Origin: an uncultured Lentisphaera sp.
GTDB lineage: Bacteria; Verrucomicrobiota; Lentisphaeria; Victivallales; GWF2-50-93
Direction of reading: 5' to 3'
NCBI GenBank assembly: GCA_964638335.1
Contig: CAZXAC010000002.1
Location: 1-33,592, forward strand
Length of the DNA stretch: 33,592 bases
The notes beneath the pieces were generated by a model. That model searched no databases. It was not told the DNA's origin and saw only the letters and a program-made list of their open reading frames with translations. The position numbers were made by a program, and so were the translations under genes. Below, one piece after another: positions 3,338 through 33,350 of this stretch; within the stretch, counting starts at the first letter, position 1; the number at the start of each line of letters is the position of its first letter.

Positions 3338-4189
3338 TCAGGAGAACACAACCGTTCTGCCTTGGAATACTATGATTCTGTTTTCCAGTTGGGCTTTCAG
3401 CGCCCTTGCCAGGACTATGCGTTCGATGTCTTTGCCTATCTGCTTCAATTCTTCGGGGTCGTTTTCGTGGTTGACTCTTTCGACATCCTGTTCTATAATC
3501 GGCCCCTCATCGAGGTCGGCTGTTACATAATGGGCTGTGGCGCCTATCATTTTTACGCCTCTTTCATATGCCTTGCGGTATGGATTTGCGCCTTGGAAAG
3601 CCGGAAGGAACGCATGGTGTATGTTTATTATCCTGCTGGAGTATTTTTGGACGAAATTTTTGCTTAGTATTCTCATGTATTTTGCGAGAACTAGGAGGTC
3701 TATGTGGTTTTTTGACAGCAGTTCGAGCACCTTCTCCTCCTGCGACTCCTTGTCTTCGTTCACAACCGGTACGCAGTAGAACGGCAACCTGAATTGCGTG
3801 GCGACGTATTCGAGGTCCGGGTGATTTGAGATTATTAAAGGAATTTCGCAGGGGAATTCTCCTTCCTTCCAGCGAAGTATTATGTCATACAGGCAATGCG
3901 ATTCCTTTGTCGCGAGTATCGCAATCCTTCTGGTGATATCGGAGTAGTGTGCCGACCATTCAAGAGAGTTTTTTCTTGCGAAATCCGCAAATTCTTTCTC
4001 AAGCTGTTCGCGGGTTGTCTTCATTCCGGCCAGATCAAGTTTCAGTCTCATGAAATATCTTGAGTTGGCGCTATCGGTATGTTGCTGGCAGTTTACGATG
4101 TTAAAGCCCTTATTAAAGAAAAATGACGTTATTTCGCAAACGAGCCCCTTGCGATCTTCGCATTGGATCAGAAACACTACGTTCTTCAT
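3338..4189 (-). CDS. purU: formyltetrahydrofolate deformylase
   Basis: 283 aa. An N-terminal ACT-like domain (VFLIQCEDRKGLVCEITSFF) is followed by a formyltransferase core (INIHHAFLPAFQGANPY, GATAHYVTADLDEGPII). Confidence 0.9.
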   Translation of the reverse strand: MKNVVFLIQCEDRKGLVCEITSFFFNKGFNIVNCQQHTDSANSRYFMRLKLDLAGMKTTREQLEKEFADFARKNSLEWSAHYSDITRRIAILATKESHCLYDIILRWKEGEFPCEIPLIISNHPDLEYVATQFRLPFYCVPVVNEDKESQEEKVLELLSKNHIDLLVLAKYMRILSKNFVQKYSSRIINIHHAFLPAFQGANPYRKAYERGVKMIGATAHYVTADLDEGPIIEQDVERVNHENDPEELKQIGKDIERIVLARALKAQLENRIIVFQGRTVVFS

Positions 4190-4901: not shown

Positions 4902-6173
4902 TCAACTCCTTTTAAGTTTTGCCACGAATACGGCGTCGGAATCCATTTCGGATGGGTTTACGTTTAGAATGCCCTCAAATATTTTTCCGCTGATAGGATC
5001 AGGAAATGTGCAGAGTTTGAAGGAAGGATTCGAAGCGGTGAACTCGGATATCACGCCTTCATTCTCCTTTCCGAATACCGAACATGTGGCATATACTAGC
5101 GTCCCGCCGCTTCTGACAGATTGAGAGGTTGCTTCGAGGATCGAGAGCTGATTTTTGTGGAATCTATCTATTTCGCTCTCCTGAGTGCGCCATCTGCCAT
5201 CCGGATTTCGTCTCCATGTGCCTGAGCAGGAGCATGGAGCGTCGACGAGCACACCGTCGAAAAATGACTCATGCCGTTTATCTCTTTTTGAAGCATCGGC
5301 TATTCGTGTACGCACATTGGATAATGAGGCTCTTGCCGTCCTTCTTTTGAGCTCTTCTATTTTTTTTTCGTCAAAGTCTTGGGAAAGGATTGAGCCTTTT
5401 CCGTTCATCATATCTGCCATTTGCAGGGTTTTTCCTCCTGCGCCGGCGCAGGCATCAAGCCACTTTTCCCCTGGCTTAGGGGCGGCAATGAGTCCTATCA
5501 TTTGTGAAGCTATGTCTTGGACCTCGAAGAGGCCGTTTTTGAATTCTGGCATTGAGTAGAGGCTGGTTTCCGATTTTAGAATTTTTACGGCATTTGGGAA
5601 ATTTTCCGGCATATTGAATTTTGCGTTTTGTCTTCTTAGCTCTGAAACTACTTTTTCTCTAGCGCCATTCTTTGTTCTTATCCATATTGGGGGGCGAGTC
5701 TGGAAGCTTTGCGTCAGATCATTAATCTTCAAGGCATCCGAAAGATTTGAAGTGAAGAATCCGGGAAGAAGTTCTTGCTGCTTGAAATTGGAAATGGGGA
5801 GGGAGAATTCCTGGGAAAGTTTTGCTGGCAACTCGCAGAAACTTAGTTTTTCCAAGGACTCATTTATGAAAGAAGCATTATCGAGGGCATTTCCGAGAAG
5901 ATCAGGGAAAGCCGCGAGTTTGCGAATTTCGCATTCCGCTTTGAGGCATTTTTTTATCCATCCCCACCAACGAAAAAGGGAGAAAATACTTTCGCTTATA
6001 AATCTCCTGTCCCTTGATCCGAGAAATTTTCTGGCTCTCAGGGACGAAGACAGGGATCTATCTGCCGGATAGCCGGATGAGAACCTGTCTAGGACCTCTT
6101 TCGCTATTTCATTCCGAGCTTTTTTGATTGCGGAAATCTTGTTTTCCGACAGCTTTGATATATCTTTTGTCAT
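4902..6173 (-). CDS. rsmB: 16S rRNA (cytosine-C5)-methyltransferase, NOL1/NOP2/Sun (RsmB-like) family
   Basis: SAM motif DACAGAGGKT, catalytic motifs DAPCSCSGTWRRNPD and YATCS, and a NusB-like N-terminal region. The track ORF extends to a TTG at 6296, but those 41 extra codons overlap acyP and look like noise. I prefer the ATG at 6173; an ATG at 6221 is also possible. Confidence 0.8.
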   Translation of the reverse strand: MTKDISKLSENKISAIKKARNEIAKEVLDRFSSGYPADRSLSSSLRARKFLGSRDRRFISESIFSLFRWWGWIKKCLKAECEIRKLAAFPDLLGNALDNASFINESLEKLSFCELPAKLSQEFSLPISNFKQQELLPGFFTSNLSDALKINDLTQSFQTRPPIWIRTKNGAREKVVSELRRQNAKFNMPENFPNAVKILKSETSLYSMPEFKNGLFEVQDIASQMIGLIAAPKPGEKWLDACAGAGGKTLQMADMMNGKGSILSQDFDEKKIEELKRRTARASLSNVRTRIADASKRDKRHESFFDGVLVDAPCSCSGTWRRNPDGRWRTQESEIDRFHKNQLSILEATSQSVRSGGTLVYATCSVFGKENEGVISEFTASNPSFKLCTFPDPISGKIFEGILNVNPSEMDSDAVFVAKLKRS

Positions 6174-6498: not shown

Positions 6499-6609
6499 GA
6501 TTTTGATTTTACGTTATATGACTTAAAAAAGATTCCCAGTGTTTGAAAAAGATTGATTGCGGTGCTATTTTCAGCTCAATATTTTAAAATGTTTTTCTGA
6601 AGGCTCTTT

Positions 6610-7071
6610 ATGTTATGTCCGCATTGCGATTGTGCTGATGATAAAGTGGTAGACAGCAGGACGACCCTTGAGGGGGCTGGAATCCGCAGGCGCAGGGAAT
6701 GCCTTAAGTGTGGTCATCGTTTTACGACTTATGAGACGATAACCCGGGAAGAACTCAAGGTGATAAAGAGAAATTCTTCCGTCCGTGAGGATTTTGACCG
6801 TGCCAAGCTGAGGGACGGTGTGGAAAGGGCATGCTGGAAACGTCCGATTGGGGACGATGATATAGATAAGATTGTTGATGACGTTGTAGCCGGAATAGAG
6901 AAGGATTACGACAAAGAAGTTACGAGTCGTGAAATAGGCAAGAGGGTGATGTTGGCGTTGAGCAAGATTGATGAGGTCGCCTACGTAAGGTTTGCTTCGG
7001 TTTACAGGCGTTTTAAGGATGTTGAGGAATTCATAAGCGAAATAAAGAAGATTGGCGAGGAACAAGAATGA
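6610..7071 (+). CDS. nrdR: transcriptional repressor NrdR (zinc ribbon plus ATP-cone)
   Basis: 153 aa. MLCPHCDCADDKVVDSRTTLEGAGIRRRRECLKCGHRFTTYE is the canonical NrdR N-terminus. It is followed by an ATP-cone (VIKRNSSVREDFDRAKL...VAYVRFASVYR). Confidence 0.95.
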   Translation: MLCPHCDCADDKVVDSRTTLEGAGIRRRRECLKCGHRFTTYETITREELKVIKRNSSVREDFDRAKLRDGVERACWKRPIGDDDIDKIVDDVVAGIEKDYDKEVTSREIGKRVMLALSKIDEVAYVRFASVYRRFKDVEEFISEIKKIGEEQE

Positions 7072-8032: not shown

Positions 8033-9748
8033 ATGGCCGACAGACTTAGAGATTTTGGCGATACCCTCATCAAGGTCATAGGTGGTTCCATGAAGGGAAC
8101 CGAGTTTAACGCGAAGAAGGGGGAAATTAGTTTCGGCCGAGGACAAGAGGCGGATATACAAATACATGATCAACTCATATCGAGAGTTCACTGCAAACTG
8201 ACTTGGGAGGGCGGAAACTGGTATGTCGAGGATCTGAACAGCACAAACGGCACTTGGATGATGGGCAGGAAGTTGACCAAAAAATCCATATTGCCTCTAC
8301 GAACTTCAGTCAGGGTCGGCAATTCCATATTTGAATTGTTTAACATGCACAGCCGTGATGATACGCAGTCAGTCAGCATGCCGCTAGTGACCTACAGGAT
8401 ACAACCCCAGACCTTGGCATCGTCACAGCCGATGCAGGCTACCGAGGCACATAAGGAAATGACGAGGCTTATAGAGGAGGAGAACAAGCGTCTATCCCTG
8501 ATATACAAGTTTCAAAATCAGATAAGTTCGATATTTAAGGAAAATGAGCTTTATCCCAGAATTACAAAAGCCGTCATGGGGTCGATAAAATCTGATGAAG
8601 TGTTTTTGCTTGTTTACGACGTTGATAATGGTCGTTTCTCTCCTGTAGCCTGCCGCAAGGGAGATCAGGACCTGACCGATATATCTAAAAATGCCATCAA
8701 CAACAATATTGTTGATTTCGTGCAGGAGAACCATGAAGCCGTGCTTTCAACTGGCAACAGGATAGGCGATCCTTTTAAGGCGGCCAGCGAGGGGCTTGCG
8801 GCTCCGACAATGAATATAATGTGCGTCCCGATGTTCGGCAAGCAGCAGCTTAACGGGATGATCTACACGACAATGACCAGCGCGGAACGCCAGTACAACG
8901 AGAACGACCTCAGAATCCTTACGGTGCTCGGCCATATAGCCGGTATGGCGCTTGAGAATGTCCGCCTCATAGAGTTCAATTTAAAAAATGAAAGGCTCGT
9001 CGCCACGGGGACAACTGCGGCAAGCCTGTCTCACTGCATAAAGAACATTATAGCTGGATTGGACGGAAGCCTTAATCTTTTAAAGATGGGAATAGATGAG
9101 AACGACATCAACCTTGCGAACGAAGCTCTTGGCATACTTAGCAAGAATCATCGCCGCTTGGGCAATCTCGCTCTTGACCTGCTTAATCTCACCACGGACC
9201 AAAAACTTAACCTCAAGCTTATAGACCTAGGTGATGTGATAGCCGAGTTGACTGAAACTATGGCGGTTCAGTTTAAGCAGGATGGAATCACTATATCCGC
9301 AACTCTTGATCCGTCTGGAATACCGCTTTGCGCGGAAGTTGACGAGAAGGGCATACACAGAGTGATATTGAATCTTCTTACCAACGCCGAGCATGCCGTG
9401 CTAGAGAGAATAGAAAAAATGGGAGCGGAACCTCCCGGCAACATCACTATATCTGCAAAATTCAATGAACAAAAAGACCAGATCCTTGTTTCTGTTTCAG
9501 ATAATGGAATAGGAATAGAGTCAGATAGAGCTGCAACACTTTTTGATATGTTCAACACTACAAAGGGAATGGGCGGTAGCGGTCTGGGACTTGCTGTTTC
9601 AAAAAAGATAGTGGAAGCCCACGCTGGGACTATATATGCGACAGGACAGAAGGACAAGGGATGTACGATGACCTTTTCCCTTCCTGTAGGTGTGGAAGAA
9701 TCTACCACGTCCACCAGAACAATAAGAAAAATCTTCAGGGAATCCTGA
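8033..9748 (+). CDS. FHA-GAF sensor histidine kinase (no receiver domain)
   Basis: 571 aa. FHA domain: FGRGQEADIQIHDQLISRVHCKLTWEGGNWYVEDLNSTNGTW. A central GAF-like region follows, then the H-box AASLSHCIKNII and the HATPase motifs NLLTNAEHAV, DNGIGI and GGSGLGLAVSKKIVEAHAGTI. Confidence 0.9.
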   Translation: MADRLRDFGDTLIKVIGGSMKGTEFNAKKGEISFGRGQEADIQIHDQLISRVHCKLTWEGGNWYVEDLNSTNGTWMMGRKLTKKSILPLRTSVRVGNSIFELFNMHSRDDTQSVSMPLVTYRIQPQTLASSQPMQATEAHKEMTRLIEEENKRLSLIYKFQNQISSIFKENELYPRITKAVMGSIKSDEVFLLVYDVDNGRFSPVACRKGDQDLTDISKNAINNNIVDFVQENHEAVLSTGNRIGDPFKAASEGLAAPTMNIMCVPMFGKQQLNGMIYTTMTSAERQYNENDLRILTVLGHIAGMALENVRLIEFNLKNERLVATGTTAASLSHCIKNIIAGLDGSLNLLKMGIDENDINLANEALGILSKNHRRLGNLALDLLNLTTDQKLNLKLIDLGDVIAELTETMAVQFKQDGITISATLDPSGIPLCAEVDEKGIHRVILNLLTNAEHAVLERIEKMGAEPPGNITISAKFNEQKDQILVSVSDNGIGIESDRAATLFDMFNTTKGMGGSGLGLAVSKKIVEAHAGTIYATGQKDKGCTMTFSLPVGVEESTTSTRTIRKIFRES

Positions 9749-17443: not shown

Positions 17444-17734
17444 CGCTGAGTTTTGTCCAACAATATAATAAAGATTGCGAAATATTCAGATGCAGAACTG
17501 CACAGTGGAATTCTGCTGTAAGTGTCCATCGACTTCCCGATGAGGAAAAGGACTAAGATTTGTTGGTTTTGTAGGACGAAATCCGTTTGAGATATTCGGC
17601 ATGAAAAGGTACAACATCTATAATAATAACGGCATAACCTATATTAGAGGAAGAAAATGCCTTTAATTTATTATTTTAAGCATTATTATTTACTCCAAAT
17701 TAACGCAATTTACGTATCAAATAAGTATCTGACT

Positions 17735-17791
17735 CCAATGCAAATAAATACCCAATGCAAATAATCGTTGGATACTTTCGTTGGATACTTT
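17735..17791. repeat. two adjacent pairs of 13-nt direct repeats in an AT-rich intergenic islet
   Basis: CCAATGCAAATAA occurs at 17735-17747 and 17752-17764 (17-nt period). It is followed directly by a perfect tandem CGTTGGATACTTT at 17766-17778 and 17779-17791. Confidence 0.85.
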
Positions 17792-17877
17792 GAAACACTA
17801 TGCTAAATTAACCATCGTTGATTTGAAGAAGACCCACAGGAAATGCCATCCGGGGGAGAAGCAGGGACAGCATGAAC

Positions 17878-18051
17878 ATGAAAATCACAGTCAAGAAGAT
17901 ACACGACAGGAATGCCAACGACTGGGACATCCCGAAAAGCCCAGAGAAGAGATTGGACATACTCGAACATTTGAGATTGGAAGCAGGAAAGTTCCTATAT
18001 GAATACCCAGCCAGACTTCGAAGAACTGTTAAGGTTGTTAGAGCAAAATAA
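17878..18051 (+). CDS. small hypothetical protein (57 aa), partner of the downstream nucleotidyltransferase
   Basis: Below the ORF-track size cut-off. Translation: MKITVKKIHDRNANDWDIPKSPEKRLDILEHLRLEAGKFLYEYPARLRRTVKVVRAK. The ...ERLD.L..LR......Y...RL.R..K.V pattern resembles small proteins I recall seeing next to this nucleotidyltransferase class. It overlaps the next gene by 53 nt in another frame. Confidence 0.45.
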   Translation: MKITVKKIHDRNANDWDIPKSPEKRLDILEHLRLEAGKFLYEYPARLRRTVKVVRAK

Positions 18052-18451
18052 AGTCCGTTACATGGTTGTCGGTGGATATGCGGTGGCATTCCACGGATTT
18101 CCACGCTTCACCAAGGACATTGACATATTCTTCCTGAATTCCGGGGAGAACATAATACTTGTCAGAAAATGCCTTTCCGATTTCGGATTCCCACAGGACA
18201 GGATTCCAAGAAAGCTGTTCACTGAAAAAGGTAACATAATCCAGTTCGGCATGGCTCCAGTAAGAGTTGATTTGATTAATGAGATTGACGGTGTTTCATT
18301 CGAGGAAGCCGAAAGACGCATAGTCCGTGGAAAATATGGGAAGGTGGAGGTCAATTTCATAGGTAAGACAGACCTGATTAAGAACAAGGTTGCTTCAGGA
18401 AGACCACAGGATGAGTTGGATGCTAAAACTTTGAAGAAAGCTAAAAAGTAG
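17999..18451 (+). CDS. small nucleotidyltransferase-fold protein (DUF2204/DUF6036-like, toxin-antitoxin-type)
   Basis: 150 aa. FEELLRLLEQNKVRYMVVGGYAVAFHGFPRFTKDIDIFF matches the GG.A...HG..R.T.DiDi minimal nucleotidyltransferase N-terminus. Confidence 0.75.
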   Translation: MNTQPDFEELLRLLEQNKVRYMVVGGYAVAFHGFPRFTKDIDIFFLNSGENIILVRKCLSDFGFPQDRIPRKLFTEKGNIIQFGMAPVRVDLINEIDGVSFEEAERRIVRGKYGKVEVNFIGKTDLIKNKVASGRPQDELDAKTLKKAKK

Positions 18452-18779
18452 CATGGGATGTCCAGATCTTCCAATTGAATATTACTTCTGTAACGGTACA
18501 TCGAATTCCGGACGGTAAACACTGACATACGTTAGCGCAAGTCATGAAAAAGTGTTTGTTTTCAGGGACGAGTGTTCATTTCAAAATTGAACGTGCTGAA
18601 AATGAAGGGTTAAGCTTTCAGGAAGCGCAGATGCGACATTTTGGCAGCAAGGTTCTTTTGAGTTTGTTTTGATAAATTGCCCACGGAAAATATTTATGTC
18701 GCCCTTCAATCAAATTAGCAAAACATCCCTCAAAATATCTCTTGTCTTTTCTAACTCTTTCAACGCAATTCAGTATGAG

Positions 18780-20084: not shown

Positions 20085-20288
20085 GGAGCCTCCATTTGCT
20101 TTGTTTCTCTAGAATTCAAACAATTTTTTGCCTCTGATGACTCATTAGCAATAAAAAGAAGATGCATGTAATTGAATCCGAGTTTACCCTCTTTCAAGCG
20201 TAAATGGAAACAGCTCTACAAAATTTGTGTGGCTTGGGAAATCCTGTTCCTATTGCCAGATAAAATCAAAAACGCCATCGAAAGACGA

Positions 20289-21653
20289 CTATATGTCTAT
20301 CGCATTATCGGTCATATCCTTGTCCCAGTTGTCCATTAGGAAATCATCTTGAATCCCATCGGCGATCAGCCTGAATGCGTATCTTACTTGTTCTTCGTAG
20401 AATTCGCAAAAGGCTCCGCGCTTGTCCATGCCTCCATTCATTGTGTGCGCCTCCGCCGGACATGGAGAGCCGCAAAAATTTCTTATCGCGCAATCTTTGC
20501 AAAACTTAATGTTTTCAACCATCCTGCCAGTTATGTCTTGGAAAGGCTTTGAAGAAAGAATTTTAGGAATTTTATCCTCGAAGATGTTGCCTCCTTTGAA
20601 CTCTGGGACCCCTATGAATTCACTGCATGGAAATACATCTCCGGATGCCGCCACGGCGAAAAAGCACCTTCCTCCTCCACAGGGTGATATGTCGCACATA
20701 AGTTTTCTGCCGGATGGAGCGAGAATAGCAAGAAGAATATTTGCGAAATTCGCTACGACTATCTTCCTTCCTGTTTTTAGATAAAGATCTCTGCTCCTGT
20801 CAAGAGCCCGTATGAAGTGTTCAGCGTTCTTCTTCTCATCTGGTTTTATTGTCCGTGAAAGCGGCTGGGTGCATCTGATTGTGTTCAGAAGGCATGTCCG
20901 GACCCCATTTTCATGAAAGAATTCAACGGTCGAGGACAGGCAATCCATGTTAAGCGACGACATAGTGCAAATAACGCTCAAACCTTCGTAAGCGGAAAAT
21001 TTATCAAGCGTTTTGCAGACTTCCGAGAATGTCCCTTTGCCGGACCATTTTTTTCGGCTTTTGTCAGATACTTTCGATGAAGGCCCATCCATGGACAATC
21101 CTATCATCACTCCATTATCTTTGATGAAACGAACATCATCGTCATCTAGTAAAGTGCCGTTGCTTTGAATTCCAAATAAAAAATCACTTCCAAATTTACT
21201 TATGATATTGAACATAGCCTCTTTGTTGACAGTTGGCTCTGCTCCGTGAAATATAATCTGCGCCTTCCTCCCCTTTGGAAGTGTCAATTTGAAGAAATCT
21301 CTTATTCTCGACATGGCATCATACATCTTGGCTTCGCTCATATTCCTGCCGTTGCGCCTCATCTTTTCCGGGATGTAACAGTACTTGCAGTTTAAATTGC
21401 ATCTGTCGGTGGGATTGAAATACACCGCCGAAGGCTTGAGGTTGAAACGCAAATCATTCATTTCCTTTCGGTAGTCTGCGATTTTCGCTGAAAAAGACTT
21501 TGACAGCTTGGAGTCGAAGAGATGTTTTCCTAGATCGTTTTTTTCAACTAAAGCCCAAAACGCTGAGTCGGGTTCTATCACTGCGCAGTACTTCTTATGA
21601 GATATGTCTAGTGGAAGAAGCCGCGGATTTTCGCCAGTATTAAAATTTTTCAT
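20289..21653 (-). CDS. radical SAM/SPASM-domain enzyme (peptide-maturase / anSME-like)
   Basis: 454 aa. The CNLNCKYCY radical SAM cluster lies about 85 aa from the N-terminus. C-terminal auxiliary-cluster cysteines (CDISPCGGGRCFFAVAASGDVFPCSEF...CKDCAIRNFCGSPCPAEA...CEF) are typical of SPASM/twitch domains. Confidence 0.9.
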   Translation of the reverse strand: MKNFNTGENPRLLPLDISHKKYCAVIEPDSAFWALVEKNDLGKHLFDSKLSKSFSAKIADYRKEMNDLRFNLKPSAVYFNPTDRCNLNCKYCYIPEKMRRNGRNMSEAKMYDAMSRIRDFFKLTLPKGRKAQIIFHGAEPTVNKEAMFNIISKFGSDFLFGIQSNGTLLDDDDVRFIKDNGVMIGLSMDGPSSKVSDKSRKKWSGKGTFSEVCKTLDKFSAYEGLSVICTMSSLNMDCLSSTVEFFHENGVRTCLLNTIRCTQPLSRTIKPDEKKNAEHFIRALDRSRDLYLKTGRKIVVANFANILLAILAPSGRKLMCDISPCGGGRCFFAVAASGDVFPCSEFIGVPEFKGGNIFEDKIPKILSSKPFQDITGRMVENIKFCKDCAIRNFCGSPCPAEAHTMNGGMDKRGAFCEFYEEQVRYAFRLIADGIQDDFLMDNWDKDMTDNAIDI

Positions 21654-21740
21654 CTTGATAATTGGTTGAGAATACGACGCAGGAGTGAGCCGTTGCTATT
21701 GCCGACCCCAAATCCTGCGCCGCATACTGTCCATGTTTCC

Positions 21741-21833
21741 TTATTCTTTTACCATTATGTAGTGAGAGAGCCCAGTTCCTTTCGCCTTGCATTTCTTCCT
21801 TGTCGCGACCACTTTTCCATTTTTCTTTTTCAT
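21741..21833 (-). CDS. 30-codon Lys-rich small ORF between the riboswitch terminator and the radical SAM gene (candidate precursor peptide)
   Basis: MKKKNGKVVATRKKCKAKGTGLSHYIMVKE. The strongest Shine-Dalgarno site I saw in this region (GAGGAG, 6 nt before the ATG) precedes it. It starts about 35 nt after the terminator and ends 87 nt before the rSAM ATG. I recognise no homology. Confidence 0.35.
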   Translation of the reverse strand: MKKKNGKVVATRKKCKAKGTGLSHYIMVKE

Positions 21834-21867
21834 TTTCTTCTCCTCATGTTGGATTTTGTTTTTTTGC

Positions 21868-21912
21868 AAAAAAAAAGGATTCCGAAAAAGGTATGACCCT
21901 CTTTCGGAATCC
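21868..21912 (-). terminator. intrinsic terminator (riboswitch expression platform)
   Basis: The 11-bp stem GGATTCCGAAA (21877-21887) / TTTCGGAATCC (21902-21912) encloses a 14-nt loop. On the minus strand it is followed by a U9 tract (A9 at 21868-21876 on the plus strand). Confidence 0.8.
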
Positions 21913-21936
21913 TTTTCCTTCAGATCCCAGTTTTTT

Positions 21937-22135
21937 GTCTCAGCAGGTCTTCTGGCTTCCGGATCAAGTCCTTGAATTCAACCTTCCCGGAAGCATATCG
22001 AAATTTCGACCAAGCTCCAGTGGTCCCCTGCAAAATCGCAAATACGATTAAATTTAGCAGGAACAAATTCAAGAATCCCCAGTTACAGCGGTGGGTCCGC
22101 CGCGGATTTTAACCGCGTTCCATTTATACTGAAAC
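21937..22135 (-). promoter_or_regulatory. cobalamin (B12) riboswitch aptamer
   Basis: The minus-strand RNA reads GUUUCAGUAUAAAUGGAACGCGGUUAAAAUCCGCGGCGGACCCACCGCUGUAACUGGGG...GGGGACCACUGG...UCCGGGAAGGU...GGAAGCCAGAAGACCUGCUGAGAC. These blocks match the conserved cobalamin-riboswitch cores: AGGGAA, the GGUGAAAAUCC-type hairpin, CGC..CUGUAA, GCCACUG, GGGAAGG, and the B12 box rAGYCMGgAgaCCkGCc at 21943-21958. P1 pairs GUUUCAG (22135-22129) with CUGAGAC (21943-21937). The layout resembles the E. coli btuB leader as I recall it. Confidence 0.85.
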
Positions 22136-22141
22136 GGACAT

Positions 22142-22169
22142 AATCTAAATCAGTGCCCCAAAAAGTCAA
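22142..22169 (-). promoter_or_regulatory. sigma70-like promoter candidate (TTGACT-16 nt-TAGATT) driving the riboswitch
   Basis: On the minus strand, TTGACT sits at 22169-22164 and TAGATT at 22147-22142. The predicted start near 22135 coincides with the 5' strand of P1. Confidence 0.5.
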
Positions 22170-22266
22170 GATAAGAAAAACAAAAGCCAGAAATACTGTT
22201 GGATTCAAAAAATATATACAATTTGTCCGGTGATACATTGCCTAAAATATTTATTTTTTCAGTCGA

Positions 22267-22365
22267 GCCGATTGCAAAATTGCCGTTGGAACGCCGGTCT
22301 CATGACCGGCTTAAGAGCCAGCCATAAGGCTGGCGGTCCTTTTAAAAGGCGATTTTGCAATCGGC
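22267..22365 (+). ncRNA. candidate structured RNA (three-way junction, unknown class) upstream of radC
   Basis: The 18-bp closing helix pairs GCCGAUUGCAAAAUUGCC (22267-22284) with GGCGAUUUUGCAAUCGGC (22348-22365). It has one U-G wobble that would be an A-C mismatch on the other strand, which favours the plus strand. Two 7-bp hairpins lie inside: GCCGGUC-UCAU-GACCGGC (22293-22310) and GCCAGCC-AUAA-GGCUGGC (22317-22334). A U5 run follows at 22373-22377. Confidence 0.4.
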
Positions 22366-22467
22366 GCCAGTCATTTTTAGGACTAGCTCCTGATGAATCA
22401 TTCAGATGGCTTGATTAGCTTATGCTATGGAGCTATACTTAGAGAAAACAAATAGAAGGGACCCAAA

Positions 22468-23222: not shown

Positions 23223-24185
23223 ATGAATTATAAACTAAAATCTCTATACACAGTCTCGCTCTTCCTTGCTGTAGGGCTTTCATGTTGCCTTGCGGAATAC
23301 GATTATGCAATTCGCTTCAGATCCGGAAGGATTATCGCGGCAGAACTTTTCCCGGGAGACAGCGCTTCAATGATGGTCAAGAACGTCAATAAGTACGATC
23401 CACCCTCAAAGATCAACTCAGATGTGGGGTATGTGGCTCTGATAGTCAATCTCGATCCAGGTAGAAGCATAAGCGTCTACGATTATGTCTTGAAAGATGC
23501 CGCAGGGAGAACTTACCCGTGCGTCGCGATAAAAGAAAGAAATGGAGAATTCGATGCGTCAAAGTGGATATATGAAAACGCCCCGCAGTCAAACAGATAC
23601 GTAATGCTTTTCAGGGTCCAACAACCCCCACCGAATAAACCACAAGAGTATAAACTAGATTTGAATCTAATAAGGACTCAAACTGATTCTGTAACGGTTC
23701 CAGTTGTAAGACTTAATAATATTCCTTTTTCAGATCCGGCAAGCTTCCCAGAGTCCGGACTCGCGCTTGCACCACCAGAAGACGTAAAAGCGTTCTACGG
23801 AAAGATCTACAAGGAAATAGAAGATAAAAAGGCGCTGGAAATAAAGAAAAAACAAGAGGCTGAGGAAAAAAGAATAGCCGAGGAAACAGCCAAAAGAGAA
23901 GCCGAAGAAAAATTAAAGGCCGAAAAGGAAAAACAGGAAAAAGAAAAGGAAAAGAAAGCTGAGAAAAAGACGGAAAAGAAAGAGCCTGTTGCGGAGGGGA
24001 AAGGCGAGATAAAAACCTTTGTAAAATTAACTCCGGCAAGATTGAGACGCCTTGAAGGAAAAACCGAAAAAGAGAAGGCTGAAATTATTAAGGCCTGGGA
24101 AAAGAACGAAATGGAAAAGCAAAGACTGGCCAAGGAAAAACTGGAAAAGAAAAAAACAGAAGATTCCGCAGAAACTAAAAAATAG
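23223..24185 (+). CDS. secreted or lipoprotein-like hypothetical protein with a Lys/Glu-rich C-terminal half
   Basis: 320 aa. The signal or lipobox-like N-terminus is SLFLAVGLSCC. A ~190-aa beta-rich domain is followed by KE-rich low complexity (KKKQEAEEKRIAEETAKREAEEKLKAEKEKQEKEKEKK...). Confidence 0.7.
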   Translation: MNYKLKSLYTVSLFLAVGLSCCLAEYDYAIRFRSGRIIAAELFPGDSASMMVKNVNKYDPPSKINSDVGYVALIVNLDPGRSISVYDYVLKDAAGRTYPCVAIKERNGEFDASKWIYENAPQSNRYVMLFRVQQPPPNKPQEYKLDLNLIRTQTDSVTVPVVRLNNIPFSDPASFPESGLALAPPEDVKAFYGKIYKEIEDKKALEIKKKQEAEEKRIAEETAKREAEEKLKAEKEKQEKEKEKKAEKKTEKKEPVAEGKGEIKTFVKLTPARLRRLEGKTEKEKAEIIKAWEKNEMEKQRLAKEKLEKKKTEDSAETKK

Positions 24186-24211: not shown

Positions 24212-24580
24212 ATGTTTGAAGTTGAAATAACAAGAAATTTTTCCGCCGCACATAAGCTTGATCAGTACAAGGGTGACTGTTCCAGACTTCATGGACACAA
24301 CTGGATTGTGAAGGTATTTGCTCAATCAAAAGAACTTGACGATATAGGCATAGCGGTGGATTTCAGGAAAATGAAGCAGACCCTCGATTCGATACTCTCA
24401 TCCATGGATCACCACAATCTGAATGAAATTACTGTTTTCAAGGGACGAAATCCGACGAGCGAAAACCTCGCAAGGCATATATACTGTGAAATGTCCAAGG
24501 TGCTAAACACAGCCTCGCTGAAAATATCCAAGGTAAGCGTGTCCGAATCTCAGGACTCAGTTGCGTCATATTTCGAATGA
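24212..24580 (+). CDS. queD: 6-carboxy-5,6,7,8-tetrahydropterin synthase
   Basis: 122 aa with FSAAHKL...CSRLHGHNW, the PTPS/QueD Zn-binding motifs. Confidence 0.9.
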   Translation: MFEVEITRNFSAAHKLDQYKGDCSRLHGHNWIVKVFAQSKELDDIGIAVDFRKMKQTLDSILSSMDHHNLNEITVFKGRNPTSENLARHIYCEMSKVLNTASLKISKVSVSESQDSVASYFE

Positions 24581-25260
24581 GAAGGATAAAAGAAAAAAGA
24601 ATCTCTAAATCCGCGAAATTCGCAGTATCAGAACTCTTCACAAGCATACAGGGAGAATCTTCATACGCAGGCCGCATATGCTTTTTCATACGCCTCGCCG
24701 GATGCAACTTAAATTGCTCCTGGTGTGATACCGAATATGCGAGAAGTAAAATTAAACCCAATCTGACAATACATGAAATCATTAGAAACGCTGAACTCTC
24801 TGGAGCAAAGATTGTGGAAATAACCGGCGGAGAGCCGCTTGTGCATGATGGTGTATTCGATTTATGCGCAGAACTTATAAAAAAAGGATTCGAAGTCCTC
24901 GTGGAAACTAATGGCAGCATATCCATAAAAGCCCTCCCAAGGCAGGTGAAAGTGATAATGGACTGCAAATGTCCTTCAAGCGGAGAATCCTCAAAAATGC
25001 TATTTAAAAATTTCAAACTATTGAATAAGAAGGATGAAGTGAAATTTGTGATAGCCGACCGAATCGATTATGATTATTCTAATAAGATATTAAAAAAATA
25101 TTCTCTTTTGAATAAGACGAAAAAAGTGTTCTTTTGTCCAGTGGCAAATCTATTGAGACCGAAAAAACTCGCCGGATGGATGATAGAGGATAAATGTCCT
25201 GCGATCTTCGCAGTGCAACTGCATAAGATAATATGGGGAAAAGATGCGAAAGGAAGATAA
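24577..25260 (+). CDS. queE: 7-carboxy-7-deazaguanine synthase (radical SAM)
   Basis: 227 aa. FTSIQGESSYAGRICFFIRLAGCNLNCSWCDTEY carries the QueE CX14CX2C-type cluster context. It overlaps queD by 4 nt. Confidence 0.92.
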   Translation: MRRIKEKRISKSAKFAVSELFTSIQGESSYAGRICFFIRLAGCNLNCSWCDTEYARSKIKPNLTIHEIIRNAELSGAKIVEITGGEPLVHDGVFDLCAELIKKGFEVLVETNGSISIKALPRQVKVIMDCKCPSSGESSKMLFKNFKLLNKKDEVKFVIADRIDYDYSNKILKKYSLLNKTKKVFFCPVANLLRPKKLAGWMIEDKCPAIFAVQLHKIIWGKDAKGR

Positions 25261-25927
25261 AAAAAAAGCTGTTGTGCTCCTAAGCGGCGGGATTGATTCC
25301 GCCACCTGTCTAGCTTATGCCACGTCGAGAGGATACGAATGCCATGCGCTGAGTTTTGACTATCGACAGAGACACAGAATTGAGCTCAAATGCGCGAAAA
25401 AGATTGCAAAACGTTTTAACTCCCACGAGCATATCGTCGTAAATCTTGACCTCCGCAAATGGGGAGGCTCGGCTTTGACAAGTTCCTCGATTAAAGTTCC
25501 GAAGGGAGGACTAAAACCTGGAATTCCTATCACTTACGTTCCCGCTAGAAATATGATATTCCTGTCAGTCGCCTGCGCTTTTGCGGAAGCCCGTGGAATC
25601 AAGGAAATTTTCATCGGAGTAAATTCTCTGGACTATTCAGGATATCCCGACTGCCGCCCGCAGTTCATACGCTCCTTCGAAAAAACAGCCAATCTTGGAA
25701 CTAAATCAGGACTTGAAAAGAAAAAGATAATAATAAGAACTCCGCTGCAGAAAATGGAAAAATGGCAGATAATAAAACTTGCATTGTCCCTAGGCGTCGA
25801 TATAGGAGAGACGAACAGCTGCTACGACCCCGGGAAAAACGGATCTCCTTGCGGGAAATGCGACAGTTGCCAAATTCGCAGCAATGCTATAAAAAGACTT
25901 GGGAATTCTAAAACCCGGATTTTCTGA
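25244..25927 (+). CDS. queC: 7-cyano-7-deazaguanine (preQ0) synthase
   Basis: 227 aa. VVLLSGGIDSATC is the PP-loop. The C-terminal Zn cysteines are CYDPGKNGSPCGKCDSC. Confidence 0.93.
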   Translation: MRKEDKKKAVVLLSGGIDSATCLAYATSRGYECHALSFDYRQRHRIELKCAKKIAKRFNSHEHIVVNLDLRKWGGSALTSSSIKVPKGGLKPGIPITYVPARNMIFLSVACAFAEARGIKEIFIGVNSLDYSGYPDCRPQFIRSFEKTANLGTKSGLEKKKIIIRTPLQKMEKWQIIKLALSLGVDIGETNSCYDPGKNGSPCGKCDSCQIRSNAIKRLGNSKTRIF

Positions 25928-28765: not shown

Positions 28766-30775
28766 ATGGGCTTTCTTGATTTAGAAATACTATGGCATTT
28801 GCTCTGGATGCTACCCCTTGTCCTTTTGGCTATCAAGTACGCGGGCAGTAGAAGGTCAAATGCAATGGCTCTTGTCCTGGGACCAAGAAAAGATTCTCCT
28901 GAATGCCATACTTTGAACCCAAAGGCGCGGATGCTAAGAAATATCTTGTTGATTTCCGGACTTTGTCTTGCCGTTGTAGCTGTCGCGCGACCCAGTTGGG
29001 GAAAAAAAATATTGCCCTTCACCAGTTCCGGACGAGATATCGTGCTTGTGGTAGATGTATCCAAAAGCATGCTTGCAACGGACATACAGCCTTCAAGAAT
29101 AGAACACACCAAGTGGCTTTTGAGAGAGGTCATATCATCTTGCGGGGGAGACAGATTTGGTTTGGTGGCTTTCTCAGGCATGGCATTTTTGGAATGTCCT
29201 CTTACGATAGATAAAACGACTTTGTTTCAGGCGATAGATGAACTTAAGCCGGGTTACATCCCGCTTGGTGGCACAAACATGCAAAAGGCGCTTGAGACCG
29301 CACTGAAATCCTTTGATGCCGCTGAAGGCGGGCACAGGGCTATCTTGCTCATAGGTGATGGTGATGAATTGCAAGGAGATACAAGCTCCATCCTTGACAA
29401 GCTTAAGGAGTCGGGAATTCCGATATTTGTTGTGGGGGTTGGTAACCCGGATCAAAAAGTCCCTATATCGGTGAAAGGCGAGGGAGGAGAGACTACATTT
29501 TTGCGAGATTCGCAAGGCGAGATTGCAAGCTCCAAGCTGAACGAAGATCTCTTGGCGAAGATAGCTGTTTCCTCAGGCGGAATATATGTACGCTCAACAT
29601 CAGTGGAGCCCGGTTTGAAAGAAATTCTTCCAAGGATCAAAGCCCTTTCTCAAGAAAAATATTCTTCGGGTCAAAACACCAGGCCAGTGGAAAAATTTCA
29701 GATTCCGTTAGCCATCGCGGTAATTATTCTTCTTTCAAGGCTTGCGATAAGCGAAAGACGAAAGCCGATGAATCTTGCGATCGGAATATTAATATTGCTC
29801 TTCCCGAACTTTTGCCCAGGAGCGCCAGAAGCTGATGAAAACATTAAAACCTATAGACCGGAAAAGGTTCAGGACTTGAAAACTGAGAATAGCGGCAAGA
29901 AAGATCCAAGAAAGATGTACAACGAAGGCTTTGATAAACACTCAAAAAACGAATTGGATTCCGCTTCTCAGCTTTATCAGAATGCGGCTGGAAGCAGTCT
30001 GTCTGATGTCGAAACAAGAAAAAAATCATTTCAGAATTTGGGCGCTATTGAACATTCAAAGGGACGTGAAATTATAAATTCAGATCCGCATAAGGCGATG
30101 GAGTTTTTTAAATCTGCTGAAAATATGTACAGAGAATCTATGAAGGAAGATTTTAATTCTCGGGACGTATCTGAAAATCAGCAGATATTGTTGAAGGACA
30201 TGGAAAAAGCCAAAAAAGCTATTGAAAAGCAAAAAGAACAGCAGGAAAAAAAGGACAAGGCCCGTAAGGAACTTGAGAAAGCGGCGCAGGAAAACAAAGA
30301 GGCTAGCAATAATCCCGGAAACCAAAAAGAAAAAGAACAGGCGAAATCTCAGACGGAAAAGGCCAAAGATGCCATGGAGCAACATATGAATCAAACCCCC
30401 GATGAAGACAAAAATGAGAAAGATAAAACGGGAAAAGCCAAGTCGGAGATAAAAAACGCCATGGATGAGCAGAAGAAAGGCGATTTTGATAAGGCTCAGG
30501 AACACCTTGAAAAAGCCTTGAAGGAATTTTCTAAGAATGAAAAAAACGATAAGGACGAAAAACAACAAGAAAAACAGCCTGAAAAGCGAAAATCGGATGA
30601 AGAGCAGAAGAAGGCGGGCGCTGATAAAAAACCAGAAGAAGAGAAGAATATAGACCCTGAACAGGCTGCTTCTATTCTAGATTTAATGGCGCAAGATGAA
30701 AATAAGCTGAGAGAAGAACTCAAGAACAGAGTTCAGGAGAATTCCAAGATAAAAGAAGTGGATAAGGATTGGTGA
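28766..30775 (+). CDS. BatB-like aerotolerance protein: N-terminal TM, vWA domain, TM, TPR-like region and KE-rich tail
   Basis: 669 aa. DIVLVVDVSKSM is the MIDAS DxSxS motif. FGLVAFSG and LIGDGDE are also present. A second TM segment (IPLAIAVIILL) is followed by a helical-repeat and KE-rich region. Confidence 0.75.
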   Translation: MGFLDLEILWHLLWMLPLVLLAIKYAGSRRSNAMALVLGPRKDSPECHTLNPKARMLRNILLISGLCLAVVAVARPSWGKKILPFTSSGRDIVLVVDVSKSMLATDIQPSRIEHTKWLLREVISSCGGDRFGLVAFSGMAFLECPLTIDKTTLFQAIDELKPGYIPLGGTNMQKALETALKSFDAAEGGHRAILLIGDGDELQGDTSSILDKLKESGIPIFVVGVGNPDQKVPISVKGEGGETTFLRDSQGEIASSKLNEDLLAKIAVSSGGIYVRSTSVEPGLKEILPRIKALSQEKYSSGQNTRPVEKFQIPLAIAVIILLSRLAISERRKPMNLAIGILILLFPNFCPGAPEADENIKTYRPEKVQDLKTENSGKKDPRKMYNEGFDKHSKNELDSASQLYQNAAGSSLSDVETRKKSFQNLGAIEHSKGREIINSDPHKAMEFFKSAENMYRESMKEDFNSRDVSENQQILLKDMEKAKKAIEKQKEQQEKKDKARKELEKAAQENKEASNNPGNQKEKEQAKSQTEKAKDAMEQHMNQTPDEDKNEKDKTGKAKSEIKNAMDEQKKGDFDKAQEHLEKALKEFSKNEKNDKDEKQQEKQPEKRKSDEEQKKAGADKKPEEEKNIDPEQAASILDLMAQDENKLREELKNRVQENSKIKEVDKDW

Positions 30776-30812
30776 TATTATTTCATATCTATATATATTG
30801 CCTGAAGTTAAA

Positions 30813-33350
30813 ATGAAAAAATTATTATATAAAATTAATTTGATTGTCTTCGCGTCCTTGTCGGGATTTGCGATTTTCGCGGCTGACCCTGAACTTAGAG
30901 TCAGTCCTGATCCGCTTGTGAAGGGAGGAAATGGGGAAATTAATATAAGCAGTTCTCAAGGGCTTCCAGAATTACTTGAAATGCCGGACGTGGACGGAAT
31001 CAGATGGCTTGGTAGGAGGGGGCAGTCTTCAAAGACGGAAATAATAAATTTCAAGACCAGTACACAACACACGGTATCATATGGTTTCTCTGTAGAAAAA
31101 GAAGGCGACATAAAATTCCCCGCATTGAAATTGAAGCTTGGAAACAAAAAGGTAGCCTGCGATCCTTTTACCGTTAAATCAATAACACCAAGTGTAGGCA
31201 CTTTGTCATCGTCTGATTCAGAAGAAGGTCTTGAAAAATATATTTTCGCGAAAGTTTTCCCGTTAACCGATAAAAATGAATTCTATTTGGGAGAAGAAAT
31301 CCCTTTTGAGATAGCCGTATTTTGTGGAAATGGAATAAGGACGGAATATTCTTGGCCTGAAATAAACGTTCCCAACATCGTATTTAAAGATTTCGGACAG
31401 GTCAACAAAGATAATCCCAAATTCGCAGGCTTCAGCACAACGACGGAAAATCTGTCAGGCAAGAGTTTCAACACGTATAGGTTTCGCACGACCTTCAAGG
31501 CTATAACTCCCGGAACGCTTTCTGGTACCGTGACTGTGCCTTGTCGAATTTTCCTGCCAAGGAGCCGGGAGCAAAGGCGTAGGCCTTCCGGTTTCGGGGA
31601 TTCGTTCTTTGACAGTTTTTTTGATGATGCGTTTTCAAGTTACGAAAGGGTTGATCATACGATCTCGTGCGATATGCCTAATTTGCGCATAGTTCCTCTT
31701 CCTGAAAAACCGGCGAACTCTATTTTTACCGGTCTTGTTGGAGATTGGAAATTCTCTTTCAGGCTTTCATCAAGTAAATTCAATTTGGGAGAAAGCTTCA
31801 TACTGAAGATTGAGCTGGAAGGGAAAGGAGGAATGGACAATCTTAGAGCGCCAGAATTATCTATAGAGGGATTCAGAATTTATCCGCCTGAGATAAGGAG
31901 GTTCTCATCTCCTTCGGAAATCGTCGAAAAAGCTTCTGTCGAATATGTGATTGTTCCTTTGGAGGAGGGTGAGGCCTCGCTGGACGTATCATTGTTGAGT
32001 TTCTCCTCAAGCAAAAAAGAATATGAAAAATGGACTTTTGCCAGAAAAATAACAGTGGGGAAAGCTGAAAATATCTCAAAACCTTCCGTAATGCTCGGGA
32101 CGGAAACAATTCGGAGGTCAGAGGAGCCTGATAAGAAAACGCCAGATACCATGTCAGATATATTGTATCTTAAAAGAAATTCATACGGATCCGTGTCAAC
32201 GCCAGTCTGGACAAACAACTTATACTTCGCCATAATCGTATTTTTTGTTGGTCCTTTTTTTCTTCTTATATCCAAAATTGTCTTTATTTTTTTCAGAGGC
32301 TCAGACAGCGTTGGGAATAGGAAGTCAAAAGCTATAAAAAGAAAGAAGTACATTATGGGAAAAATCAGAAAACTAAACGGTGAAACTTCGAACGTATTTA
32401 TAAGAGATGAGCTTTGCCCTTGGTTGAACGATGTCAAAGGTTACCCGCCAGGCACAAGCGCCGAAGAGATTGCAGAAAAAATTGACGATAAGGAACTTGC
32501 TGAACTTATTTCGAACTCAGCCAAAGGAGCTTATATGCCGGAACCTCACAATAAAGATGATGAGAACGTTAGAAAAATCCTATCGAATGGGGTGAAAAGG
32601 ATTGTCGGAGCGATCGTAATCGCCCTTGTCATGTTCTCAAATTTATTGTCTGCCCAGGATGTATCGACAACGGCGCTTAATAAAGATCCTTTCCAGTTAT
32701 ATGACGCGGGAATGTTCCAAGAGGCCGGAGCGGCTTTTGCGGAACAACTCTCAAAGAGCCCCAACGATCCGTATTTGCTTTACAACATCGGATGCTGCTC
32801 ATATAGGTATGGAAGACTGTCGGAAGCCCTTTACTTTTTTGAGAAGGCCAATATGCTGGCCCCGAGGGACAGCGATATCAGGGAGAATATGAATCACACT
32901 AGGAGAAAACTGAACATTCCGGAAAAAGGCTTGACCGATAACCCAAAAGAATTGCTCCTACGCCTTAGAGATACTTTCAGACCTGATGAATGGATCCTAA
33001 TATTTTCAATTTTTTCTTCGTCCGCATTGGTGGTTCTCGCGATAAGGAAAAGAATATCATACGATAAATTGTGTGTGATTTTGCTGTTCTGCTCCACCTG
33101 CGTTGCAATAGCGGTCCTTGCAATTTTTTCCCAGTTGACCGGAGATTACAACTCTGATGCAGGAATCGTCGTAAGGCGTGGAAGCGCTTTGTTTATATTG
33201 CCGTCAGAGAATTCAGAAAAGACCGAGATTCGCCCCTTTGAAGGACAAAGGGTGAAAGTTGTAGAGGAAAGAAGCGACTGGAGCATAATCAGGCTGGAAT
33301 CTGGAGAGGGTTGGACTAGGAAGGAGAATGTCAGAAAATTCTGGGAATGA
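30813..33350 (+). CDS. BatD-like oxygen-tolerance protein fused to a BatE-like TPR and SH3 module
   Basis: The track ORF starts at a TTG at 30798; I prefer the ATG at 30813 (MKKLLYKINLIVFASLSGFAIFA signal). About 460 aa of BatD-like beta-rich region are followed by a TM segment, then TPR repeats (QLYDAGMFQEAGAAFAEQL...LLYNIGCCSYRYGRLSEALYFFEKA). Two more TM segments follow, then an SH3b-like end (GQRVKVVEERSDWSIIRLESGEGWTRKENV). Confidence 0.75.
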   Translation: MKKLLYKINLIVFASLSGFAIFAADPELRVSPDPLVKGGNGEINISSSQGLPELLEMPDVDGIRWLGRRGQSSKTEIINFKTSTQHTVSYGFSVEKEGDIKFPALKLKLGNKKVACDPFTVKSITPSVGTLSSSDSEEGLEKYIFAKVFPLTDKNEFYLGEEIPFEIAVFCGNGIRTEYSWPEINVPNIVFKDFGQVNKDNPKFAGFSTTTENLSGKSFNTYRFRTTFKAITPGTLSGTVTVPCRIFLPRSREQRRRPSGFGDSFFDSFFDDAFSSYERVDHTISCDMPNLRIVPLPEKPANSIFTGLVGDWKFSFRLSSSKFNLGESFILKIELEGKGGMDNLRAPELSIEGFRIYPPEIRRFSSPSEIVEKASVEYVIVPLEEGEASLDVSLLSFSSSKKEYEKWTFARKITVGKAENISKPSVMLGTETIRRSEEPDKKTPDTMSDILYLKRNSYGSVSTPVWTNNLYFAIIVFFVGPFFLLISKIVFIFFRGSDSVGNRKSKAIKRKKYIMGKIRKLNGETSNVFIRDELCPWLNDVKGYPPGTSAEEIAEKIDDKELAELISNSAKGAYMPEPHNKDDENVRKILSNGVKRIVGAIVIALVMFSNLLSAQDVSTTALNKDPFQLYDAGMFQEAGAAFAEQLSKSPNDPYLLYNIGCCSYRYGRLSEALYFFEKANMLAPRDSDIRENMNHTRRKLNIPEKGLTDNPKELLLRLRDTFRPDEWILIFSIFSSSALVVLAIRKRISYDKLCVILLFCSTCVAIAVLAIFSQLTGDYNSDAGIVVRRGSALFILPSENSEKTEIRPFEGQRVKVVEERSDWSIIRLESGEGWTRKENVRKFWE

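Follow-up and report, generated by a model that had tools for sequence, protein, structure and literature searches.

We describe a locus on the minus strand of a 33,592-nucleotide stretch of DNA from an uncultured Lentisphaera sp. (assembly GCA_964638335.1, contig CAZXAC010000002.1, positions 1 to 33,592; this whole stretch is called the window below), in which a cobalamin riboswitch precedes cbpA, a gene for a 30-amino-acid peptide, and cbpB, a gene for a 454-amino-acid radical S-adenosylmethionine (SAM) enzyme with a SPASM domain. On balance, we favour the reading that the three together form a corrinoid-repressed, self-contained two-gene cassette resembling those for peptides made on ribosomes and modified after translation (RiPPs), and that this cassette serves cobamide or cobalt supply. 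Judged by its profile matches, the pair is an ordinary member of the curated equivalog pair TIGR04163 'rSAM_cobopep' (CbpB) and TIGR04164 'cobo_pep' (CbpA). A preliminary description, drawn up from the letters of the DNA, had proposed that the intergenic region of 814 bp upstream of cbpB (21654..22467) holds a complete minus-strand unit of promoter, aptamer, terminator and short open reading frame (ORF); indeed, every element was recovered at or near its proposed place, and the count of 814 bp was right.

The CbpB protein scores 649.5 bits against TIGR04163 (cutoff 375), with the alignment covering positions 2-428 of the 428 in the profile, and the 30-amino-acid ORF scores 37.5 bits against TIGR04164, just above the cutoff of 35. 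CbpA and CbpB orthologues from distant phyla also exceed both NCBIfam cutoffs. These equivalog matches displace two statements of the preliminary description, namely that the riboswitch controls something other than a known member of the B12 regulon, and that no system with this architecture had been described; the CbpB name is already present on public NCBI records from Victivallales, Planctomycetota, Thermodesulfobacteriota and Syntrophales. The label 'cobopep', going by the name alone, presumably refers to cobalamin, and a 2011 paper by Haft and Basu reportedly introduced such families. The pairing of CbpA with CbpB is a database prediction, as is the proposition that CbpB would modify CbpA, and the family is named yet experimentally uncharacterised; our literature search found no description of a riboswitch-controlled radical SAM peptide maturase. 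At E≤1e-30, the CbpB family comprises 2438 proteins, and at least 578 species-representative genomes from more than ten phyla encode a relative, the carriers including Lentisphaerota, Planctomycetota, Verrucomicrobiota, Kiritimatiellota, Desulfobacterota/Syntrophales, Nitrospinota, Dehalococcoidia, Elusimicrobiota, Bacillota, Myxococcota and others.

The cobalamin aptamer, which had been read from the letters together with its B12 box, was fully borne out by the Rfam scan: it matches RF00174 with 63.3 bits (gathering score 31.5, E 1.4e-13) over the full model (1-189 of 189), carries the B12 box AAGCCAGAAGACCUGC at 21958..21943 on the minus strand, and is the sole Rfam match in the whole window. 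The promoter candidate proposed ahead of it, TTGACT-16-TAGATT, is likewise present and well placed, since transcription would then begin near G22135, where P1 has its base, although the consensus match as such lies within shuffle expectation (six sites of this type, against 4.4 ± 2.3 in shuffles) and is not significant alone. We scanned 74 of the 80 orthologous loci that were fetched, using Rfam gathering thresholds, and found a same-strand RF00174 aptamer just upstream of cbpAB in 63 of them, across phyla; five loci, whose sequence ahead of cbpA is shorter than 220 nt, carry no information on riboswitch presence. Wherever the sequenced DNA reaches far enough upstream of cbpB, it contains a cbpA gene; whether orthologues also sit behind RF00174 aptamers and next to a short Lys-rich ORF was a question raised in the preliminary description. 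In six loci, the opposite strand holds a second RF00174 aptamer, back-to-back with that of cbpAB (Table 1); it precedes cobC-cobU-cobT-cobS in L004, L023 and L046, and in L043 cobT alone could be recognised behind it.

Directly after the aptamer, the window leader can fold into a terminator hairpin of up to 24 pairs with a free energy of about −34 kcal/mol, followed by nine U's. The terminator and its U-tract were thus called correctly in the preliminary description, and the size of the stem, given there as 11 bp, was understated. The fold of the whole leader in the window has a z-score of −4.4 against shuffles. A hairpin with a T-run is found between the aptamer and cbpA in 60 of the 63 riboswitch-bearing leaders, and this platform is kept in genomes ranging from 42 to 70% GC. 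Across phyla, the 3′ arm of the terminator is conserved in sequence, with a CGGAAC/UCC end before the U-run. The stem is therefore conserved not just as a structure, and the entire leader, expression platform included, behaves like one conserved unit with the genes. Among about 59 loci, the 3′ arm ends with CGGAACCC in 17, with CGGAATCC in seven and with CGAAACCC in five.

When transcripts were folded after truncation ahead of the 3′ arm, the 5′ arm paired with upstream sequence instead in 47 of 48 cases. Its partner is often a (C)GGAAUC(C/U) element at the 3′ edge of the aptamer (UGGGAUCU in the window), and otherwise the 3′ strand of P1. This antiterminator duplex beats shuffled upstream sequence in 44 of 47 loci, with a mean of −12.6 versus −9.8 kcal/mol, and in the window it has a z-score of −2.2 against shuffles. 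An over-strict test, which demanded an exact direct repeat of at least 6 nt between the terminator 3′ arm and upstream sequence, was positive in 7 of 59 loci. Overall, the loci weakly suggest a terminator/antiterminator OFF switch, which they support collectively and only weakly one by one; the OFF polarity is what the behaviour of known cobalamin riboswitches would lead one to expect.

The 30-codon ORF, which the preliminary description had picked out by its Shine-Dalgarno sequence (GAGGAG, 6 nt before the ATG at 21833), is a genuine gene, as evidenced by its TIGR04164 match and by its conservation in nearly all orthologous loci. All 71 copies of CbpA that we compared contain the core R-x2-C-x3-G-x-G-L-S-H-[YF], represented in the window by R12, C15, G19, G21, L22, S23, H24 and Y25. 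In its extended form the core reads [VI][IV]A-x-R-[KR]-x-C-x3-G-[T]-G-L-S-H-[YF]-[IV]-[LM], with R, C, G, G, L, S and H invariant, and it is flanked by variable Lys-rich ends; the C-terminus of the window peptide, IMVKE, is slightly unusual. There is neither a signal sequence nor a double-glycine leader in CbpA. The aromatic position is occupied by Phe in 4 of the 71 copies, and for this reason the idea that the product is a phenolic lower ligand derived from tyrosine was rejected. At locus L073, a single ORF (3765-3950, plus strand) carries two tandem CbpA cores (VIAYRSKCDAKGTGLSHYILPEDKKEVVAFRRKCDSKGTGLSHYILPEDK) and matches TIGR04164 in two stretches with 72.6 bits.

In CbpB, Pfam recognises PF04055 and a SPASM domain (PF13186), with PF13353 below threshold, and finds no cobalamin-binding domain, the feature that would place the enzyme in class B of radical SAM proteins; this is the 454-residue protein with a CxxxCxxC cluster and no such domain that had been read from the sequence. 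Cross-phylum identity to the window protein is still 55-59%. Across an alignment of 59 sequences, in which mean column identity is 71%, the radical SAM cysteines C85, C89 and C92 and the SPASM cysteines C325, C343, C385, C388, C394, C398 and C416 are all invariant. So is an extra cysteine, C320, which aligns with the additional auxiliary-cluster-I cysteine of anSME, at a position where CteB has no cysteine. The complete SPASM seven-Cys motif, together with C320, implies that CbpB probably has two fully ligated auxiliary clusters. An AlphaFold2 (AF2) model built with 59 homologues (pLDDT 90.4, pTM 0.90) places an N-terminal domain, the radical SAM barrel and the SPASM domain in that order. Modelled residues 13-70 form three strands (13-15, 22-27, 32-37) followed by three helices (38-46, 48-55, 58-70), a beta-beta-beta-alpha-alpha-alpha arrangement that corresponds to the topology of a RiPP recognition element (RRE), and we accordingly call this predicted domain RRE-like; the N-terminus gave no PqqD match in Pfam. 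In Foldseek searches, the best full-length match was CteB, with an alignment spanning 474 columns and a template-modelling (TM) score of 0.70; the sequence match to CteB begins at CbpB residue 76, whereas the structural match covers the full length. It was followed by anSME (0.69-0.70), ChlB, SkfB, TigE and SuiB, with PqqE weaker. The earlier observation that CbpB has about 85 additional N-terminal residues where RiPP maturases carry a precursor-recognition domain agrees with the topology of this model.

Several characterised enzyme groups were tried as the family of CbpB and rejected, namely anSME, SCIFF/CteB, PapB, DynA, HxsB, PqqE/MftC and AhbD/NirJ, all of which fall far below their cutoffs; DynA, for instance, scores 130 bits. 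No AhbD or NirJ model is found among the best 25 of the 70 NCBIfam families matching the window protein at E≤0.01, and among the models listed for orthologues the Ahb pathway is represented solely by the deacetylase TIGR04546, with 60 bits versus a cutoff of 650. The search of SPASM-subfamily profiles called for at the outset thus gave no clean fit to anSME or AhbD/NirJ and a fit to TIGR04163 instead.

We surveyed the neighbourhoods of 80-81 loci with flanks of about 4 kb, confirming the neighbours by Pfam. At least one cobamide-supply gene lies within about 4 kb of cbpAB in 21 of 81 loci, which is a lower bound. The confirmed neighbours are CobT, CobS, CobU, a CobC-like phosphatase, CbiB, CbiC, CbiA, CobO, CbiD, CbiM and CbiQ, as well as a CobD-type aminotransferase and BtuC/BtuF-like importer parts. 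All of the recurring neighbours are cobamide-supply genes, and no single one is universal. In Syntrophales, Kiritimatiellota and Dehalococcoidales, cbpB is separated from cobT on the same strand by only 17-77 nt, and three Verrucomicrobiota loci display the order cbiB-cobO-cbiA-cbiC-cbpA-cbpB-cbiM-cbiN-cbiQ-cbiO-cbiD with overlapping ORF ends, where detection failed for cobO in one locus and for cbiQ in one, and where Pfam gives no match for cbiN and identifies cbiO only as an ATP-binding cassette ATPase. Across the surveyed loci, neither a B12-independent isozyme nor a B12-dependent enzyme recurs as a neighbour, and no conserved exporter, protease or immunity gene was found beside cbpAB in 80 loci.

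The working of the cassette may be pictured as follows. The leader would act as a class-I-type cobalamin riboswitch. With corrinoid bound, the aptamer would keep its own 3′ sequences, allowing the 24-pair hairpin and its U9 tract to form and transcription to end before cbpA; with corrinoid scarce, the sequence at the 3′ edge of the aptamer would pair with the 5′ arm of the terminator as an antiterminator, and cbpA-cbpB would be transcribed. The CbpA peptide would then be held by the RRE-like N-terminal domain of CbpB and subjected to radical SAM chemistry aided by the two auxiliary Fe-S clusters. The most economical guess is that modification takes place at the single invariant Cys, in the form of either a thioether bridge to the GLSHY segment or an oxidation of the anSME type. 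Since the pair has no conserved protease, exporter or immunity gene at its side, its product is probably kept within the cell, where it would most likely be an accessory factor of cobamide or cobalt supply, for example in the handling of cobalt or corrinoids through Cys/His chemistry, or as a peptide-derived cofactor. We put forward more tentatively, and with somewhat less than an even chance of being right, the further proposal that the CbpA-derived peptide is an unrecognised and widely conserved part of anaerobic cobamide supply, be it an intracellular cobalt or corrinoid handler or a cofactor for corrin assembly, salvage or cobalt insertion.

A number of observations weigh against assigning the cassette to corrinoid-repressed supply. 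The antiterminator of the window, at −8 to −10 kcal/mol, is weak beside the terminator with its −34 kcal/mol, and in most loci the antiterminator pairing is individually non-significant. No RF00174 match was found within ±4 kb in eight loci even at a permissive threshold; at least three of these eight sit inside longer cob operons. In about three quarters of the loci, including the window, cbpAB stands alone amid unrelated genes, a placement that is also usual for B12-independent isozymes, and the support that gene neighbourhoods lend to a supply role is guilt by association only. As for the chemistry, C320 and a fully ligated auxiliary cluster I, unlike the situation in CteB, suggest that a CteB-style thioether mechanism is less apt, and the PapB, DynA, anSME and SCIFF models give 100-145 bits on CbpB, far under their cutoffs. 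Finally, a literature search found no paper on cobopep/CbpAB, its chemistry or its phenotype.

The same regulation would be expected of a B12-sparing substitute, in which corrinoid scarcity brings in the modified peptide, or CbpB itself, to replace or circumvent a B12-dependent reaction, in analogy to the placing of metE or nrdD behind cobalamin riboswitches. Its regulatory logic would be identical to that of the known B12-independent isozymes, CbpB does not contain a B12-binding domain, and most loci, the window among them, are stand-alone riboswitch units without cob genes nearby. Known isozymes, however, are not arranged inside operons for cobamide biosynthesis, salvage or transport, such as those which embed or abut cbpAB in the 21 loci mentioned above with overlapping or very short spacing; none of the recurring neighbours is a B12-dependent enzyme or its alternative, and a 30-residue peptide with one maturase is no obvious stand-in for any known B12 enzyme. 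It is because of these neighbourhoods that we favour a supply role over B12-sparing replacement, which we regard as unlikely. Of the two options left side by side in the preliminary description, replacement of a B12-dependent step is accordingly disfavoured, with about a quarter of loci in or next to cobamide operons and no isozyme context recurring, while a modified peptide tied to corrinoid scarcity fits, the short ORF being the conserved precursor CbpA.

If the peptide is a substrate of CbpB, its product could conceivably be secreted during corrinoid starvation, as an antimicrobial or as an extracellular scavenger of corrinoid or cobalt that leaves the cell through unlinked machinery. An RRE, a radical SAM/SPASM maturase and a short precursor do make up the standard architecture of RiPP natural products, and methanobactin is an earlier example of a metallophore that is a RiPP and whose regulation follows metal scarcity (mentioned in PMC3531188). 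The absence of a conserved exporter, leader protease or immunity gene in 80 loci speaks against export, as do the two peptide ends, which are just Lys-rich and carry neither type of secretion leader, and the core is invariant over more than ten phyla, whereas antimicrobial RiPPs diversify; we find a competitive or signalling role very unlikely. Just as improbable, in our opinion, is a scheme in which the short ORF is no substrate at all, serving instead as a regulatory leader or upstream ORF, or as a small partner, with CbpB acting on a corrinoid intermediate or on a protein. The product of CbpA has never been observed, the window peptide barely passes its model cutoff, and the cysteine pattern of CbpB is like that of anSME, which acts on proteins encoded elsewhere. 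Yet the ORF is located downstream of the terminator and has its own Shine-Dalgarno sequence, so that it is not part of the attenuator, and its conservation is at the amino-acid level over genomes of 42-70% GC. The two tandem cores in the one ORF of L073 are typical of RiPP precursors, and the RRE-like domain on CbpB likewise points to a peptide substrate.

If CbpAB does serve cobamide supply, the B12 pathway of at least 578 species, from more than ten phyla, would gain a RiPP. If, furthermore, its role in cobalt or corrinoid handling is true, anaerobic B12 metabolism would have in it an accessory that was missing so far, and no RiPP before it would have combined riboswitch control with a physiological role. 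Standard annotation would name the locus already, which is therefore no new kind of system; the family as such is still a blind spot. From Lentisphaerota to Dehalococcoidia its peptide core does not vary, the riboswitch and terminator of its leader are conserved, and it has repeatedly been built into cob, cbi and btu operons; with just two genes and a substrate of 30 amino acids, it poses a well-defined, widespread and readily testable problem in B12 biology.

Table 1. Features of the cbpAB locus in the window and divergent second riboswitches at orthologous loci
Feature	Position	Strand	Basis
Sigma-70-like promoter candidate TTGACT-16-TAGATT	22169..22142	−	Consensus match at 9 of 12 positions
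Cobalamin riboswitch aptamer, RF00174	22148..21925	−	Rfam scan, 63.3 bits
Candidate antiterminator strand UGGGAUCU	21929..21922	−	Predicted pairing with GGAUUCCG in terminator 5′ arm
Intrinsic terminator with U9 tract (21876..21868) after a stem of up to 24 pairs	21921..21868	−	Folding
Shine-Dalgarno sequence GAGGAG of cbpA	21840..21845	−	Sequence reading, 6 nt before ATG 21833
cbpA, 30-amino-acid precursor peptide MKKKNGKVVATRKKCKAKGTGLSHYIMVKE	21833..21741	−	TIGR04164, 37.5 bits (cutoff 35)
cbpB, 454-amino-acid radical SAM/SPASM peptide maturase	21653..20289	−	TIGR04163, 649.5 bits (cutoff 375)
RRE-like N-terminal domain, CbpB residues 1-75	21429..21653	−	AF2 secondary structure
Radical SAM motif C85-x3-C89-x2-C92 of CbpB	21378..21401	−	Invariant in 59-sequence alignment
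SPASM region of CbpB, seven-Cys motif and C320	20406..20696	−	Alignment
Weak terminator-like hairpin directly after cbpB stop	20274..20289	−	Sequence analysis
Divergent second riboswitch, L004	3279-3455	−	Rfam
Divergent second riboswitch, L014	3113-3306	−	Rfam
Divergent second riboswitch, L023	3298-3471	−	Rfam
Divergent second riboswitch, L043	3299-3489	−	Rfam
Divergent second riboswitch, L046	3298-3483	−	Rfam
Divergent second riboswitch, L049	3206-3389	−	Rfam

In the window, cbpA and cbpB are separated by a spacer of 87 nt (21654-21740, minus strand), with about 40-120 nt in most other loci; the two genes share one reading frame, and no obvious Shine-Dalgarno sequence was seen in this spacer before the cbpB ATG. 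The cassette stands alone amid housekeeping genes, including gyrA, a formyltransferase gene, an rsmB-like gene, kinase genes, a phosphofructokinase (PFK) gene, radC and queD/E/C. Co-transcription of the downstream PFK gene was considered and rejected, given the gap of 204 nt, the weak hairpin after cbpB and the lack of conservation of PFK in other lineages; the PFK neighbour recurs only in L081, a second public contig identical or near-identical to the window, which carries the identical arrangement and in which the 30-amino-acid gene has already been called. Elsewhere in the window, between radC and the queD-queE-queC cluster (24212-25927), an ORF of 320 amino acids (23223-24185, plus strand) combines a hydrophobic segment at its N-terminus with a C-terminal half that is long and rich in Lys and Glu, and yielded no Pfam match. 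A DUF6036 nucleotidyltransferase-like ORF (17999-18451, plus strand) lies in a region poor in long ORFs (17444-18779) and could be one half of a toxin-antitoxin-type pair, and at 28766-33350 (plus strand) genes for a VWA-domain protein and, after it, a BatD-like protein make up a Bat (aerotolerance-operon-like) cluster.

The scans of the orthologous loci also brought up several other RNA elements near cbpAB. In two loci from Syntrophales/Syntrophaceae (L037, 5159-5256, and L040, 5604-5699, both on the plus strand), the element directly downstream of cbpB is a thiamine pyrophosphate riboswitch. Downstream of cbpAB in L051, there are two matches to the Acido-Lenti-1 small RNA (6592-6637 and 8285-8330, minus strand), and a group II intron domain match (5388-5493, minus strand) is located just past cbpB in L067, from a Chthoniobacteraceae genome.

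Comparison of CbpAB with known systems shows that the closest structure in the PDB is CteB, the SCIFF maturase (5WGG; phmmer 1.8e-23, profile search 2.4e-32, TM score 0.70 over the full length), which the CbpB model resembles in its three-part architecture of RRE (RRE-like in CbpB), radical SAM barrel and SPASM domain. By sequence, too, CteB and anSME are the nearest of the solved structures. Identity between the two is only about 20%, the SCIFF maturase model TIGR03974 scores 103.3 bits on CbpB versus a cutoff of 425, CteB has no counterpart of C320, and the SCIFF precursor contains six Cys, as opposed to the one invariant Cys of CbpA. The anSME structures (4K36-4K39) are nearly as similar, with query TM scores of 0.69-0.70, target TM scores of 0.83-0.85 and an rmsd of about 3.2, and the extra upstream cysteine of auxiliary cluster I is common to anSME and CbpB. 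The sulfatase motif is C/S-x-P/A-x-R, to which C-x-A-x-G in CbpA is loosely similar, although CbpA does not have the Arg of this motif. In other respects anSME is unlike CbpB, in that it has neither an RRE domain nor a dedicated adjacent peptide, and its model, TIGR03942, gives 126.1 bits on CbpB versus a cutoff of 349.45.

The ranthipeptide maturases of the PapB type (NF047865) are the second-best NCBIfam match, with 142.2 bits, below the cutoff of 340. They resemble CbpB as Cys-dependent, thioether-forming radical SAM/SPASM enzymes with a short precursor. PapB is described as acting on repeated Cys-X3-Asp/Glu motifs (PMC9413430). Such repeats are absent from CbpA. With PqqA/PqqE and MftA/MftC, the cassette shares a tiny precursor with an invariant core, a radical SAM/SPASM maturase with peptide recognition (predicted for CbpB), a wide distribution and a level of conservation like that of housekeeping genes. 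In contrast to CbpAB, however, those systems require several more dedicated genes and are not under riboswitch control, and the mycofactocin radical SAM model scores only about 59 bits on CbpB orthologues, versus a cutoff of 265. Lastly, there is the classical cobalamin-riboswitch regulon (cob/cbi, btuB/btuFCD, cbiMNQO, metE and nrd), among the members of which reviews, to our knowledge, do not list a RiPP-like peptide with its maturase. While cbpAB differs from these members in the nature of its product, a RiPP-like peptide together with its maturase, it has the same family of aptamer and a terminator-type, putatively OFF, expression platform, and 21 of 81 loci show it in physical linkage with cob, cbi and btu-like genes.

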